The notes below the pieces were generated by a model. That model saw only the letters and a program-made list of their open reading frames with translations. It was not told the DNA's origin and did not search any database. Below, piece after piece: positions 23,937 through 43,437 of a DNA stretch of 51,506 bases. Origin of the DNA: a virus. How positions within the stretch are numbered: position 1 is the first letter of the stretch; every line of letters begins with the position of its first letter. The stretch is from the IMG/VR virus record IMGVR_UViG_3300045988_081631, one strand, 5' to 3'. Both the position numbers and the translations under genes were made by a program.

Positions 23937-23965
23937 TTGACAATCGCTAATAGTAGTGTTATAAT
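23937..23965 (+). promoter_or_regulatory. consensus sigma-A type promoter driving the GC-rich plus-strand island
   Basis: TTGACA (23937..23942), 17-nt spacer, TATAAT (23960..23965). Confidence 0.75.
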
Positions 23966-37946: not shown

Positions 37947-38145
37947 GCCGTCTTTCCGGCTGCCAGAAAAAATGGTGTGCGGTCTTTCCCGCCGTCAGAA
38001 TGTGAAAAAACAGTTTTGTCTTTCCGCCGTCTCTCCGGCTGTCAATTTTGTTGATCGTCTTTCCGATCTGTCGATGCTAAAGAACACGTCCCTTCGTCTT
38101 TCCGAAGCGCCAGAAATGAAATGTGCGGCGCCCGTCTTTCCGAGC
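37947..38145 (-). repeat. array of seven mini-hairpins with covarying stems and a conserved loop (GAAAGA on the minus strand)
   Basis: Plus strand gccg/tctttc/cggc, gcgg/tctttc/ccgc, (g/tctttc/c), gccg/tctctc/cggc, gatcg/tctttc/cgatc, cttcg/tctttc/cgaag, gcccg/tctttc/cgagc. Confidence 0.75.
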
Positions 38146-38356
38146 AGCCAGTATGATCATAATTTGCCCTTGCTCCGCCATCCTCCCTTCTGTTGGAGCT
38201 TTCACCGTTTCAAGCAGTTCCTTCGTGCTTGACTTACCCAAACTTCTTCTGCTCGGCGCGCGGCGGTATCGACCCGCCCCTTCTTCTTGGCGCTGCTTGC
38301 CGCCTTGAAGCTGCTCTCCTGAGCTGCGCACCATGCGCAAGGGTTTTAGCCCTTGC

Positions 38357-39022
38357 TTAATCCGGCTCACATTTCAACCCCAGCGTCTTACAAATTTCTT
38401 TCGTCGCCTTGATGGACTTAATGTGGTATCGTTCATCAAATTCTTCCTGCGCCATCGTGTGGCACTCCGTATGATGCACCCTGCAAAGCGGTTCGAGCGG
38501 CATACCCTCGTGGATGATAGTCTTTCGGTTCGCACCCATGCCAATCCGCGTCCAGTGGTGGATATCGGCTTTCTGGCCGCAGATGCAGCACTTTCGGCGC
38601 ATCAGGCAGGAATACATATACCTGTCAACGTCGTCGGCCAGAGAGGCCAGCGGAACGCGTGTCGGGATATCGTTGCGGAGAATGAAGTCAATTAAATAGG
38701 AAATAAATTCTTTGGCAGTTGTCACGTCGCAATCCGACAGGCTGAACAGCTCTCGTTGGAGCTGTTTGAGGTGGTTTGCAACAAAGTCATGCTTCATCAC
38801 GTCCTTGATTTCGCTCTGCTCGTAGCCGTAGAACTCGCCGATTTCCCGCATCAGCGCATAAGCCTTGCGGCGCTGCTCCGGGCTGATTCTTCGCCCGTCT
38901 GGCAAGCCAACCTGTACCTCGTTGTATTGGCGCTTGATGATCTTCTCAAGGTCTCCATACGGCACGAAGACCATCAAGCCGCCGTCAACCACGTCAACGA
39001 TCTTTCCCGGCGCTATTTCCAT
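38357..39022 (-). CDS. HNHc-type phage nuclease
   Basis: CCICGQKADIHHW.....LCRVHHTECH. Confidence 0.65.
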   Translation of the reverse strand: MEIAPGKIVDVVDGGLMVFVPYGDLEKIIKRQYNEVQVGLPDGRRISPEQRRKAYALMREIGEFYGYEQSEIKDVMKHDFVANHLKQLQRELFSLSDCDVTTAKEFISYLIDFILRNDIPTRVPLASLADDVDRYMYSCLMRRKCCICGQKADIHHWTRIGMGANRKTIIHEGMPLEPLCRVHHTECHTMAQEEFDERYHIKSIKATKEICKTLGLKCEPD

Positions 39023-39554
39023 TCGGATTCTCCTTCTGCCAGAGGAAAACGAGCTTCTTGTTCTTGGAGTTTCGGATTGCAAGCCCTACGATATTTCGCT
39101 GTTCATCGTCATAAGCGATTTTCTGCACCTCAAACTTGTCGTAGGTCATCGCCTTGCCGTTTTTGTTTGGCTTGATTTCCACTTTTTCAGCGGGAATCCA
39201 GATAAACGGCGCTGTGTAAAGCTCTCGACCGATGCCCCAGTTGACGCAGGCGCGCTTGAAACTGTCAGATGCAAGCCCCTTCGCGGCTTCCGTGTTGCTC
39301 TCTGTGCCCGTGTCCTCCTTCTCAATCCACGTCTTTTTGTCTGCGTCAAAGATGGAGACAATGCAGTTTGCGTTATCCCTGTCGTGGCGACGCGACCAGT
39401 TGAACGAGCCGACTGTCTCATCAAGGATATCCATATCGCACCGCGCGTTCTTGTAAAGCAGGAGCTGACAGCCCTTTTCGCTGATCTGCGCAACCCGCAC
39501 GTCAATTTCGGACGCTTCCAGCGGTCGGAACATCCGCTTTTTCTTCTCGTCCAT
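38994..39554 (-). CDS. Rad52/Sak-like single-strand annealing protein
   Basis: LLLYKNARCDMDILDETVG...KGLASDSFKRACVNWGIGRELY. Confidence 0.7.
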   Translation of the reverse strand: MDEKKKRMFRPLEASEIDVRVAQISEKGCQLLLYKNARCDMDILDETVGSFNWSRRHDRDNANCIVSIFDADKKTWIEKEDTGTESNTEAAKGLASDSFKRACVNWGIGRELYTAPFIWIPAEKVEIKPNKNGKAMTYDKFEVQKIAYDDEQRNIVGLAIRNSKNKKLVFLWQKENPNGNSAGKDR

Positions 39555-39558
39555 CCTT

Positions 39559-39696
39559 TCACCACCTATCCATCATGTCCCAGAAGGGGTTATCGTCGTC
39601 CTGCTCGGTGTTCCAGCTCGGCTCTTGTCCTGTCAAGCAGGGCGACCACTCGCCATCTGTATACGCCTTGTACAGCGCCAACTGCTCACTTGACAT
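39559..39696 (-). CDS. small acidic hypothetical protein (45 aa)
   Basis: Hand translation MSSEQLALYKAYTDGEWSPCLTGQEPSWNTEQDDDNPFWDMMDRW. Confidence 0.4.
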   Translation of the reverse strand: MSSEQLALYKAYTDGEWSPCLTGQEPSWNTEQDDDNPFWDMMDRW

Positions 39697-40183
39697 AGAT
39701 GCTCACCGTCTGCCGCAGTTCTGCGCCATCGACAGCCTTTCCGGCCTTCAAGGCTTCCTTGATTTTTGTCTTGTCCGGCTCGTACTTGGCCGGAATCTCG
39801 CGCATGTACTCGCTGGTCAGCTTGCTTGCATCGGTGATTTCTGCCGCAGGCGGATTTTTTTTAAAGAAGATATTTACCTTGGCCGTCTCAAACTTTTCGC
39901 CGCCAAGCGACTGGCTCAGATACGCCTTCAGCTTTTCAAGCTGCCCTTCATACACCTTCCGGCGCTCGGAAATGGATTTCTCCTCGTTCTTCATCGCGTC
40001 GATCAAGGCCGTTTGCTTTTTGATGTAAAGCCCAGTGTTCTCGATCTTCTCCTCACGCGCCATTTGCAGCGCATCCAGCGCTTCCGCGCCGATGATCTCG
40101 CCCGTCTCCGGGTTTACCAGCTCATAGCCTTCAAGCAGCGCTTCAATATTCGCGTCGATCTGGTACAGGCTCAATCCGCTCAT
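39686..40183 (-). CDS. Gp157-like phage protein
   Basis: MSGLSLYQIDANIEALLEG... coiled coil; position is before the annealase. Confidence 0.6.
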   Translation of the reverse strand: MSGLSLYQIDANIEALLEGYELVNPETGEIIGAEALDALQMAREEKIENTGLYIKKQTALIDAMKNEEKSISERRKVYEGQLEKLKAYLSQSLGGEKFETAKVNIFFKKNPPAAEITDASKLTSEYMREIPAKYEPDKTKIKEALKAGKAVDGAELRQTVSIYVK

Positions 40184-40325
40184 TGATGATTCTCCTCTCT
40201 TGCGCTCTGATGATCTCTTTCCGGCGGCGCGAAGCAGCTTTGCTTGCTTGCATTGCGGCCCACGCTTCGCGCCCCATCTGCTCGGCGGCTTCCTGCTGCT
40301 CAAGCTCAAACAGCTCACTCCGCAT
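40143..40325 (-). CDS. small hypothetical protein (60 aa)
   Basis: AAGGAG is 7 nt before ATG 40325. Confidence 0.4.
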   Translation of the reverse strand: MRSELFELEQQEAAEQMGREAWAAMQASKAASRRRKEIIRAQERRIINERIEPVPDRREY

Positions 40326-40461
40326 CTTCAAGCTCCTTGATTCGCTGGTTCAGGTTCTTGATATATTCCTCAATCATAATAAGTGGAAGCGCCGAATAGC
40401 CGAATTTGTGCAGCAGATTCTCCGTCTCTTTCAGCGCCTCCAATACCGTTTTCTCATCCAT
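40315..40461 (-). CDS. small hypothetical protein (48 aa)
   Basis: AAGGAGGG RBS; starts MDEKTVLEALKE. Confidence 0.45.
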   Translation of the reverse strand: MDEKTVLEALKETENLLHKFGYSALPLIMIEEYIKNLNQRIKELEDAE

Positions 40462-40612
40462 TCTTCTTTCCCTCCTTGTCCATTTCCGCGAGGATGCAGC
40501 ACACCAGCAGCAGCGCCGCACCGACCACGCCAACCGCCAGCGCATACGCAAGCACCATGCCCAGCCCTTCAAGCAGCCGGGCGAAAAAACCGATGAACTG
40601 CGCTTTAAGCAT
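40454..40612 (-). CDS. 52-aa hydrophobic peptide with a charged C-terminus (type I toxin-like)
   Basis: Hand translation MLKAQFIGFFARLLEGLGMVLAYALAVGVVGAALLLVCCILAEMDKEGKKNG. Confidence 0.5.
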   Translation of the reverse strand: MLKAQFIGFFARLLEGLGMVLAYALAVGVVGAALLLVCCILAEMDKEGKKNG

Positions 40613-40640
40613 TGATATTTCATCCTTTCTGTGCTATAAT
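40612..40640 (+). promoter_or_regulatory. near-consensus plus-strand promoter with an extended -10
   Basis: TTGATA-17 nt (ending TGC)-TATAAT. Confidence 0.6.
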
Positions 40641-40645
40641 AGCCA

Positions 40646-40702
40646 TGGTTTAAATTTTCCATTGGCTTCCGCTCGTGTTGCTGCACGGGCGGCTCTTTTT
40701 TT
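40646..40702 (+). ncRNA. candidate sRNA of about 55 nt, antisense to the HTH-to-peptide intergenic mRNA
   Basis: Promoter as above. Terminator CCGCUCGUG-UUGCUG-CACGGGCGG plus U7. The stem G.U pair exists only in plus-strand RNA. Confidence 0.5.
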
Positions 40703-40985
40703 ATACCCACTGTTTCTTTCGGCGAATCGGCTTTCCCGCTTCCTTCGCCTCGATGAACCGCGCAAGGCTTCGCACGTCAACGGCCTTACCCTCGCAGGCT
40801 CTTTCGATCTGGCCGCCCTTGAGCATCGCGCTGATTGTTGACCGCGAACAGCCGAGGATTTCCGCCGCCCTGACAGTCGTACAGGTTTCGCCGTACTGGA
40901 TTGCCATTGCCGCCTGTCTGTCGCCGAGGATTGCGGTCTTGAGCGCGTCAAACTGTGCGTCTGTCAATGCCCGAATCTCCATCAT
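40701..40985 (-). CDS. helix-turn-helix DNA-binding protein
   Basis: TTVRAAEILGCSRSTISAMLKGGQI. Confidence 0.65.
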   Translation of the reverse strand: MMEIRALTDAQFDALKTAILGDRQAAMAIQYGETCTTVRAAEILGCSRSTISAMLKGGQIERACEGKAVDVRSLARFIEAKEAGKPIRRKKQWV

Positions 40986-41158
40986 CACACCCCCTTAAAC
41001 AGCTTTGCCAGCAAGAAAAAGAAGCTGTACCCGTTGAGCACCGCGCAGACCAGCATCCAGACCCACATGAACGCGCTAGTCGTCTTCTGGCCTTGCAAAA
41101 TGCAAACCATACACACTACTCCCGACAGGGCTGTCATGAGGATATCCATGTTAAACAT
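40985..41158 (-). CDS. 57-aa two-helix membrane protein
   Basis: Hand translation MFNMDILMTALSGVVCMVCILQGQKTTSAFMWVWMLVCAVLNGYSFFFLLAKLFKGV. Confidence 0.45.
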   Translation of the reverse strand: MFNMDILMTALSGVVCMVCILQGQKTTSAFMWVWMLVCAVLNGYSFFFLLAKLFKGV

Positions 41159-41314
41159 ACTCGCACTCCCAAAGCAACCACGACAACCAACCGAAACAAA
41201 GCGTGACGATCAGGCTTGTCAGCGTATTCAGTACGCTTCCGCCACAAGTGGCGTTCAGCCCGGTGACAGCCGCCGCGAAGATGGTGAGCGCAGCGCCTAC
41301 CCAGAACAATTTCT

Positions 41315-41318
<4 letters not shown>
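41151..41318 (-). CDS. 55-aa two-helix membrane protein
   Basis: Hand translation MKKLFWVGAALTIFAAAVTGLNATCGGSVLNTLTSLIVTLCFGWLSWLLWECEYV; ATGA coupling. Confidence 0.45.
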
Positions 41319-41949
<631 letters not shown>

Positions 41950-41962
<13 letters not shown>

Positions 41963-42237
41963 TCTCTCACCGCCTTAATGTTCTCCACGGCCTTATCCGT
42001 GCAGGCGATGATCTCGATCACGCCGAGAACCGTGCAGGACGGGACGGTTACCGTGAACTTGCAGTTCTGCGGGCACTTCACGCCCTCGGTCGCAAGCTGG
42101 CTCAAGCTCGCCGCGCCCTCCCAGTACCAGATACGCCGAGCGTCGGTCAGCTTCGCTTCGTTGCCGTTGCGCTCCTCGATGTGGGCGAAAAATACGCCCG
42201 CACGGTCGGTTCTTACGATGTACCACTGTTTTTCCAT
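41950..42237 (-). CDS. hypothetical protein (95 aa)
   Basis: ORF track. Confidence 0.55.
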
Positions 42238-42250
42238 GTTCGTTTCCTCC

Positions 42251-42424
42251 TTATTCTTGCTTTACAGCTTTCTTGCTCTCCGCAGCCTTCTCGGCTTCCT
42301 TTTCCTCGTTCTTCGCGCTTCCCAGCGCGATTCCGGCCATCAGACCAGCGATGGCCGCGGTGCCGCGGTTCTCCGGCATATCGCCCAGCATCTCGACAAC
42401 CTTCTTGACCTGTTCTTCGCTCAT
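42251..42424 (-). CDS. first early-operon protein (57 aa, one hydrophobic helix)
   Basis: GGAGGTG RBS; begins about 50 nt downstream of the early promoter. Confidence 0.5.
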   Translation of the reverse strand: MSEEQVKKVVEMLGDMPENRGTAAIAGLMAGIALGSAKNEEKEAEKAAESKKAVKQE

Positions 42425-42475
42425 GCTATCACCTCCAAGCCGTGTTACATTTTTTATTTTGTTGACCATGTGAAC

Positions 42476-42504
42476 ATTATACGCTTCTAAGTTACCTTTG
42501 TCAA
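42476..42504 (-). promoter_or_regulatory. early lytic promoter (perfect consensus)
   Basis: Minus strand TTGACA-17-TATAAT. Confidence 0.8.
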
Positions 42505-42580
42505 CATGTTTTTGCAAATTTATGTTGACTGTGTTGGAATTATTTTTAGAAACTGAATCTCTAGGAATACAAAAAACATG

Positions 42581-42609
42581 TTGACTGTGTTAGCATGTTG
42601 TGTTATAAT
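42581..42609 (+). promoter_or_regulatory. repressor gene promoter
   Basis: TTGACT-17-TATAAT; the ATG is 26 nt downstream. Confidence 0.8.
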
Positions 42610-42634
42610 GATTGCGTCAAAGAGAGGTGAAAAC

Positions 42635-43027
42635 ATGAAAGACAGGATTAAAGAAATCCGTAATTTATATGGAATGACACAGGCTGAATTTTCCGAAAAG
42701 CTAGGCGTTTCAAGGAATTATACAAGCCTTCTCGAATCCGGCGACCGCGTTCCTTCCGAACAGCTCGTTAAGTCGATTTGCCGTGAGTTTAACATCCGTT
42801 ATGACTGGTTGGTAAACGGCGAAGAACCGATGATGATTCCGCAAGACAAGTATGATGAGCTGATTCAGACGATTCTTCATAATAAGTCGGAGTTCATGCG
42901 GTCGGCAGTCATGACCATCTCCCGCATCCCCGGCGGTTGGGAAGCGCTTGAACAGGTCGTAACGCAGGTCTACGAGGATTGGCAGAAAGAGCTGAAAGCC
43001 CAAAACGAAAAAAAGCCGGACGAATAA
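42635..43027 (+). CDS. cI-like XRE-family repressor
   Basis: IKEIRNLYGMTQAEFSEKLGVSRNYTSLLESG; divergent from the early operon. Confidence 0.8.
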   Translation: MKDRIKEIRNLYGMTQAEFSEKLGVSRNYTSLLESGDRVPSEQLVKSICREFNIRYDWLVNGEEPMMIPQDKYDELIQTILHNKSEFMRSAVMTISRIPGGWEALEQVVTQVYEDWQKELKAQNEKKPDE

Positions 43028-43049
43028 CGCAAAGCGCAATCGCGGGCAT

Positions 43050-43084
43050 AAAAATCCCCGGCCGCGTTTGCGAACCGGGGATTT
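43050..43084. terminator. bidirectional terminator
   Basis: aatccccgg-13 nt-ccggggatt, flanked by an A-run and a T-run. Confidence 0.7.
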
Positions 43085-43089
43085 CCCTG

Positions 43090-43299
43090 TTATGACACCT
43101 TCGGCGCGTCGATATACGCGCGTTCGAGCATTGCCCAGACGCGAAGCAACGTCGGGCGGTCTACCTTGGTGATGAGCCTACCGCAGATCTCTTGTATCCG
43201 ATCAGTCGGGACATCCGGCGGCGGTTTTGCCCCGTCTGTGGTGTGCTCTCTCCTTGCTCGATGGGTCGGGATGTTACAGGGTCTTCGAGTTTGCTTCAT
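43090..43299 (-). CDS. hypothetical protein (69 aa)
   Basis: Strong RBS AAGGAGGG. Confidence 0.55.
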   Translation of the reverse strand: MKQTRRPCNIPTHRARREHTTDGAKPPPDVPTDRIQEICGRLITKVDRPTLLRVWAMLERAYIDAPKVS

Positions 43300-43437
43300 G
43301 GTACGTCCCTCCTTCTATGTATATTGTATCACTACTTTTGTTAAACGCTTCTGATTCGACAAACAAAGTGCAGATGCGTATGAATCCGTATATGTTTCTG
43401 TCTGCATTCGACAGATTTTGAAAGAAGGTGAATACAT

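Follow-up and report, generated by a model that had tools for sequence, protein, structure and literature searches.

The locus raises two questions: whether a short unit on the plus strand of a phage early operon is a genuine small RNA (sRNA) gene, and whether such an RNA would act on the small membrane peptide encoded beside it or on the operon as a whole. The window, meaning the whole 51,506-nt stretch of DNA that was analysed, represents a temperate siphophage genome or prophage from the human gut. A preliminary description had read the unit and the peptide gene as a candidate type I toxin-antitoxin-like pair. Antisense RNAs against early operons are textbook material for lambda, P22 and P1, and to our knowledge they are hardly documented in phages of Gram-positive gut anaerobes. 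The word "Gram-positive" is absent from a 2025 review of phage sRNAs (PMC12197685).

Genome setting and early operon

Nearly all genes from the early promoter down to ~26.8 kb lie on the minus strand. The features that define this part of the genome are the following:

42578..43027, plus strand: cI-like repressor gene, divergent from the early promoter
42476..42504, minus strand: early lytic promoter, TTGACA-17-TATAAT, a 12/12 consensus match
40701..40985, minus strand: 94-aa HTH_17/excisionase-like gene, with its TAA stop (40703-40701) beneath the sRNA U-tail
40454..40612, minus strand: gene for a 52-aa single-helix membrane peptide, the first gene downstream of the sRNA target
40315..40461, minus strand: 48-aa gene, translationally coupled to the peptide gene through a ATGGATGA overlap and called at this same length in related loci

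The early promoter presumably drives the polycistronic mRNA with which the predicted sRNA pairs. The operon begins with a small first gene, a DUF6948 gene, a gene for a 215-aa Gly/Ser-rich protein and genes for two small membrane proteins, and continues with the HTH_17/excisionase-like gene, an 88-nt gap that holds the sRNA target, the 52-aa peptide gene and the coupled 48-aa gene. Next come Gp157, a 186-aa protein with an ERF-type homologue in related loci, and an HNH protein, before the replication region is reached. Besides the 52-aa peptide, the early operon encodes two small membrane peptides at 40985-41318.

The first gene behind the early promoter (42251-42424, minus strand) probably starts at an ATG at 42424 with the RBS GGAGGTG at 42430-42436. 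This start yields a 57-aa Ala/Glu/Lys-rich protein with a hydrophobic middle, where most relatives have a Cro-type HTH protein instead; the 88-aa ORF listed for this gene begins upstream of the early promoter. In the switch region between the early promoter and the repressor gene (42500-42591), CATGTTGAC occurs three times, ATGTTGACTGTGTT forms a direct repeat (42522-42535 and 42578-42591), and GTCAACATGTT is inverted (42500-42510). These repeats overlap -35 elements and are likely operators for the repressor and Cro.

The integrase has relatives of only 24–31% identity, which include uncultured Clostridiales and Oscillospiraceae MAGs. GTDB species genomes contained no relatives of the HTH gene, the peptide or the sRNA unit, and the sole match among INPHARED phages was 54 nt in the Gp157 gene.

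Promoter, terminator and predicted RNA

Three overlapping features on the plus strand make up the unit:

40612..40640, plus strand: sRNA promoter, with -35 TTGATA (40612-40617), a 17-nt spacer, TG (40632-40633) and -10 TATAAT (40635-40640)
40647..40702, plus strand: predicted cis-antisense sRNA of ~56 nt, bounded by promoter and terminator, with a putative start
40669..40702, plus strand: intrinsic terminator, with stem 40669-40677/40684-40692, loop 40678-40683 and T7 at 40696-40702

The preliminary description had placed a TTGATA-17(TGn)-TATAAT promoter at 40612..40640 and a GC stem with U7 at 40669..40702, and both were found exactly there. The promoter scores 11/12 against the consensus. 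Six matches of at least 11/12 occur in the whole 51.5-kb window on both strands, versus 0.67 expected from shuffles, and the other five are located at the repressor/early switch or head other operons. Near-consensus promoters (11–12 of 12) of the late/packaging region lie at 23937 (plus strand), 22335 (minus strand) and 20505 (minus strand), one of them heading a plus-strand island at ~23.9 kb.

On the opposite strand, the peptide ATG (40612-40610) lies beneath the first base of the sRNA -35 element, and the peptide RBS AAAGGA (~40621-40628) falls inside the promoter spacer. The overlap with the start codon and RBS that had been described is thus true of the promoter DNA, which overlaps both, and not of the predicted RNA, which reaches neither. 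We placed the RNA start at a conserved G, 7 nt past the -10 element, a position that holds G in 29 of 30 distinct RNAs. From this start, the RNA would be complementary to the mRNA ~35–90 nt upstream of the peptide start.

Neither a LexA-type nor a repressor operator was seen at the sRNA promoter. No copy there of the CATGTTGAC repeats of the switch region (42500-42590) was found, and from this we infer constitutive firing; control of the sRNA promoter by the repressor was rejected, as the promoter shares no operator-like word with the switch region.

The sRNA opens with a weakly structured, A/U-rich 5′ part, after which come the terminator hairpin (CCGCTCGTG/CACGGGCGG, 40669-40692, a GC stem of 9–10 bp) and U7. 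The 57-nt predicted transcript folds at -18.3 kcal/mol (z = -3.1). A G.U pair had been described as existing in plus-strand RNA only, and the hairpin indeed folds at -17.2 kcal/mol on the plus strand versus -11.2 kcal/mol on the mRNA strand, because the G.U pair becomes a C.A mismatch there. The T-run after the hairpin is likewise present on the plus strand only. A search of positions 38000-44000 against Rfam gave no match at E <= 1, and hence no sequence or structure homology to OOP.

Attenuation of the operon driven by the countertranscript was rejected, as the mRNA strand carries no hairpin with a U-run between the target and the peptide start. A 131-aa ORF (40315..40710, minus strand) runs across the sRNA target in frame with the 48-aa gene; it was rejected as non-coding and is interrupted in relatives. 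At some loci an upstream in-frame ATG gives 63–71-aa versions of the peptide (P0002, P0016 and P0035, all at loci with the type B RNA described below). These extended versions and the 131-aa ORF are probably artefacts, judging from their interruption in close relatives.

Conservation across related loci

We compared 61 loci, comprising the window, IMG/VR contigs, ENA/Logan contigs and metagenome records. Conservation of the promoter and terminator in relatives had been proposed as a check on the unit, and the unit was kept at 61/61 loci. The -35 element is TTGnnn throughout (TTGATA at 43 loci, TTGCTT at 12, TTGACA at two, and others), the spacer measures 17 nt at 59/61 loci, and TG precedes the -10 element at 58/61. 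The -10 element is TAnAAT at all 61 loci; it varies at position 3 alone, with A2 and T6 invariant. In sigma-70 -10 elements, the third position is the least constrained.

The RNAs between these promoters and their terminators fall into five types (A–E) with unrelated 5′ halves, which are A/U-rich in type A and C/U-rich and unstructured in types B–E. A GC hairpin and a U-run close all five types, whose lengths range from 48 to 62 nt. A 5′ hairpin proposed for type A (AGCCATGG...CCATTGGCT) was rejected as weakly supported; only its inner 3–4 pairs lie inside the RNA. The body of the type A RNA encodes no protein on either strand, and its diversity (pi) across type A loci is 0.09 versus 0.19 at the third codon positions of the adjacent gene.

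The terminator occurs in three stem versions. They differ by a compensatory double change (U-A<->C-G), by a single inserted pair and by three one-sided changes, and the one-sided changes keep pairing only via G.U on the sRNA strand. With just these three stem types, few independent events underlie the covariation. Standard pairs fill 99.3% of stem cells on the sRNA strand versus 83.8% on the mRNA strand, and the hairpins fold at -15.9 to -17.4 kcal/mol on the sRNA strand versus -11.2 to -13.4 kcal/mol on the mRNA strand.

In types B, C and D, an inverted repeat with differing arm sequences flanks the -10 hexamer (L001, 2945-2965; L005 and L038, ~1645-1665 on the minus strand; L015). Its versions are CGTGGT-ATAATA-ACCACG, CGTGC-TATAATTT-GCACG, CGTGCT-ATAATC-AGCACG and CGTGCTA-TAAT-TAGCACG; in type A it is absent or shrunk to GCTAT-A-ATAGC (window 40633-40643). 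Two roles are conceivable: an operator overlying the sRNA promoter, or an mRNA hairpin just 5′ of the peptide RBS, which might act as a 5′ stabiliser after cleavage.

Overall, the conservation pattern makes a functional promoter-terminator unit on the plus strand far more likely than chance or constraint on the mRNA strand. The architecture claimed at the outset, a ~55-nt plus-strand unit antisense to intergenic mRNA, is thus strongly supported by the comparative data, with the RNA itself a prediction. The unit at 40612..40702 is very probably a genuine sRNA gene.

The 52-aa peptide

The peptide had been described as a hydrophobic helix with a charged tail. It has a hydrophobic core at about residues 18–42 followed by a charged tail, and AlphaFold2 likewise predicts a single helix (H2-51, pLDDT 88). 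A search of 5.8 billion proteins returned 74 cluster representatives with 65–96% identity, all unnamed. Hardly any variation affects the N-terminal 23 residues; the core varies but stays hydrophobic. Diversity at the three codon positions was 0.098/0.074/0.192, a coding pattern from which we judge that this is a real, conserved coding gene. The RBS of the 48-aa gene (AAGGAGG) sits within the sequence that encodes the charged tail, and part of this tail is there because that RBS dictates the residues.

The peptide matched nothing in Pfam, PHROGs, NCBIfam or PADLOC, and homology to toxin families (Hok, Ldr, Fst, TxpA/BsrG, Ibs, TisB, ShoB, Zor and those of C. difficile) was likewise absent in those databases. 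Among 42 distinct contexts, no sense-strand promoter-like site (at least 9/12) was present within ~250 nt upstream of the peptide. The peptide gene is an internal operon gene that is translationally coupled to its neighbours.

Modular position of the unit

Upstream of the unit we found three kinds of partner: the HTH_17 gene (as in the window), an 89–92-aa HTH-like gene and a 207-aa gene. The TAA stop of the upstream gene begins an A-run in all three contexts, and the overlap with the sRNA is limited to the stop codon. The downstream joint is the RBS/start codon, which is shared by three different downstream genes. The 52–55-aa peptide is the directly adjacent downstream partner at ~56 of the 61 loci, and an sRNA lies upstream at every peptide locus found (61/61).

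At L020 and L025, a DUF7666-like gene (206–233 aa) lies between the sRNA promoter and the peptide, and the -35 element is a perfect TTGACA. At L068, a gene of ~400 nt separates the sRNA unit from the peptide. The peptide starts a few nt past the stop of the inserted gene at all three loci. At L025, a reading frame overlapping the DUF7666-like insert contains a (TTPISPAAV)n repeat.

At L034 and L035, the unit precedes an 81-aa HTH gene and the 52-aa peptide is replaced. One gene past the sRNA unit, L034 (~1018-1132, in the mRNA orientation of the extracted region) and L035 encode a 38-aa peptide, (M)NELWTTLAVLDLAALVGALLYLAVRIEQELKKEHEG, which also consists of a helix and a charged tail; its GTG start overlaps the stop of the 81-aa HTH gene (GTGA).

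The sRNA types combine freely with flanking genes and with repressor/cro alleles. From these junctions, we conclude that the sRNA unit is a mosaic module with exact joints at the A-run/stop codon and at the RBS/start codon.

Proposed function

Our favoured explanation, held with moderate confidence, is that the unit encodes a cis-antisense RNA resembling lambda OOP that acts at the level of the operon. The earlier suggestion of antisense control of a membrane peptide is plausible in this form, with control exerted on the operon in the manner of lambda OOP. The sRNA promoter would be active throughout, including in the lysogen; it is probably constitutive because it is near-consensus, has an extended -10 element and carries no repressor operator. 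The sRNA would form a perfect duplex with the polycistronic early mRNA where the immediate-early genes give way to a block that opens with the 52-aa peptide and goes on to Gp157, the Erf/RecT-type recombination genes and the replication genes. The resulting duplex of ~55 bp could be cut by a double-strand RNase (RNase III), with decay of both products. In addition, polymerase bound at or firing from the sRNA promoter may collide with polymerase arriving from the early promoter. The net effect would be a threshold below which leaky early transcription fails to express the peptide and delayed-early genes, and which strong early transcription after induction would override.

RNA synthesis, its timing, the involvement of an RNase and the direction of the effect are the parts of this model that we infer. 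The assumptions regarding host RNase III and the sigma factor are generic because the integrase relatives are distant. An effect on the upstream regulator is less obvious, because the RNA overlaps its gene only at the stop codon. The tight linkage to the peptide (directly adjacent at ~56/61 loci) weighs against a purely operon-level action, since it could mean a role specific to the peptide.

Alternative explanations

The label of a type I toxin-antitoxin pair, under which the peptide would be a membrane toxin and the sRNA an antitoxin acting on its 5′ untranslated region, is unlikely to be right. In lysogens, such an arrangement would keep the peptide silent, and it might also stabilise the prophage. 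In known systems, Sok blocks mok, IstR-1 blocks the tisB standby site, and IstR-1, OrzO and Sok target the 5′ untranslated region. A hydrophobic helix with a charged tail is a form that fits this idea and is generic for type I toxins, and prophage toxins of C. difficile share it (PMC7699646). The constancy of the arrangement, with an sRNA upstream of the peptide at 61/61 loci and directly adjacent at ~56, also speaks for a pair, as does the presence of another small helix-plus-charged-tail peptide one gene further on at both loci that have a replacement for the 52-aa peptide.

The points against a toxin-antitoxin pair concern both partners. The peptide lacks a promoter of its own in all 42 distinct contexts, being internal and translationally coupled, and shows no similarity to toxin families or defence models; moreover, small membrane peptides are common in this early operon anyway (two at 40985-41318). 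The RNA covers neither the coding sequence nor the RBS of the peptide. A whole gene stands between sRNA and peptide in L020, L025 and L068, and therefore the RNA can reach the peptide there only via operon-level effects; L034 and L035 have the unit in front of an HTH gene and lack the 52-aa peptide. AUG codons with a weak Shine-Dalgarno sequence in the sRNA target region of types A–D speak for a pair, but the upstream reading frames are inconsistent in frame and length. A mok-like upstream frame was rejected accordingly: Shine-Dalgarno energies at the target AUG codons were -5.5 to -7.0 kcal/mol versus -9.3 to -12.6 kcal/mol at the annotated start. We therefore consider the type I label unsupported, given the lack of a peptide promoter (42 contexts), an RNA that lies off the coding sequence and RBS, the use of the unit with other downstream genes and the absence of a toxin-family match.

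A combined explanation, which we rate as quite unlikely, would make the sRNA and the helix-plus-charged-tail peptide a conserved functional pair within the early operon, in which the prophage uses a constitutive antisense RNA to hold a lytic peptide for host shut-off or killing below its threshold and types A–E double as specificity groups that knock down superinfecting phages of matching type. If true, it would merge type I toxin-antitoxin logic with RNA-based superinfection immunity.

Taken by itself, the proposal that sRNA made by a prophage knocks down the delayed-early genes of superinfecting phages sharing its type is improbable. Types A–E would then be specificity groups and the sRNA an RNA layer of superinfection immunity. 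The proposal draws on the RNA body, which falls into discrete unrelated types with a shared promoter and terminator, is conserved within a type, and is shuffled independently of the repressor/cro alleles and the flanks. There is also a precedent in STnc6030 of BTP1, an antisense RNA that excludes the "self" phage (PMC7067206). Ordinary mosaic recombination can, however, also yield discrete types; only five types were seen, and a cis role could coexist with such immunity.

It is also hardly likely that the promoter itself is the functional part, with the RNA a by-product of a polymerase roadblock or collision over the RBS and start codon. On this account, the terminator would keep a short RNA from running into the upstream genes. 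A near-consensus extended -10 promoter does face the early promoter, its elements are the most strictly conserved part of the unit, and the RNA body is replaceable between types. Against this, the RNA body is constrained within a type (pi 0.09 versus 0.19 at third codon positions), and the terminator is kept with strand-specific pairing, which would be needless if the promoter alone mattered. This account overlaps with the OOP-like explanation that we favour.

Finally, that there is no consequential plus-strand RNA and that the elements serve the mRNA strand (as RBS and processing or stabiliser hairpins) or act as recombination linkers between mosaic modules, their resemblance to a promoter and terminator being accidental, is very improbable: the spacer coincides with the RBS and the -35 element with the start codon, so that translation signals explain part of the conservation, and the module boundaries coincide with the unit, but the -10 element, the TG and the 17-nt spacing go beyond any coding or Shine-Dalgarno need and are kept at 58–61 of 61 loci, and the hairpin pairs fully, with a T-run, on the plus strand only.

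Significance

Under the favoured explanation, the unit would belong to a known kind of phage regulator and form a new family at the sequence level, an incremental addition with no new principle. Because it is sharply defined and strongly conserved, the sRNA unit offers a candidate that can be tested in an abundant family of temperate phages of the human gut, and its -10 element can be mutated without a coding change because TATAAT is intergenic. If the unit sets the delayed-early threshold, it is relevant to how stable prophages are in the gut and to their spontaneous induction there. Annotation pipelines at present call spurious extended ORFs across the unit and should recognise it instead.

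Comparison with known systems

The locus resembles type I toxin-antitoxin systems in that a small (<60 aa) hydrophobic peptide with a charged tail lies beside a short antisense RNA in a prophage, and in that the antisense RNA, here a predicted one, has its own constitutive-looking promoter and terminator and would target a 5′ untranslated region. It differs in that a type I toxin is its own transcription unit, whereas the 52-aa peptide has no promoter of its own, and, unlike hok/mok/Sok, tisB/IstR-1 and zorO/orzO, the unit also precedes other genes. The geometry also differs from that of the C. difficile pairs of the CD0977.1/RCd11 type, which converge and whose overlap falls in the 3′ part of the antitoxin (PMC7699646).

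Among phage antisense RNAs, sar of P22 and c4 of P1/P7 control antirepressor genes, and c4 is processed from the transcript of its target and acts in trans. The unit described here differs from both in having no antirepressor context and a promoter of its own. The likeness lies in a small phage antisense RNA that limits a segment of an operon and has a role in immunity or lysogeny (PMC12197685).

The closest comparison is with lambda OOP. In lambda, the promoter pO sits within the N-terminal end of O, oop and the end of cII overlap by 52 bases, the hairpin tO ends the RNA, and OOP directs RNase III-dependent cleavage of the cII-O mRNA (PMC5869508). An OOP at the equivalent position of the Salmonella prophage BTP1 was detected by RNA-seq (PMC7067206). 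The RNA predicted here differs from lambda OOP in overlapping the upstream gene at the stop codon only, versus 52 nt of cII, and in its length (~56 nt versus 77 nt), and it has no sequence or Rfam relationship to it. Other departures from lambda are that different genes can take the upstream position, that the sRNA promoter showed no LexA-type or repressor operator, and that at nearly all loci the gene downstream encodes the 52-aa membrane peptide and not a replication initiator. The host, too, is presumably a Gram-positive-type gut bacterium, in which the RNases may differ.

What the unit has in common with lambda OOP and OOP-BTP1 is a short, terminator-bounded RNA directed against the early rightward-type operon from its own promoter, here predicted from sequence. 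Its position between the early regulators and the replication/recombination genes is that of lambda OOP, and its promoter overlies the start of the downstream gene as pO does. As with lambda OOP, the RNA covers an intergenic spacer, and its perfect duplex with the polycistronic mRNA would be a substrate for RNase III.
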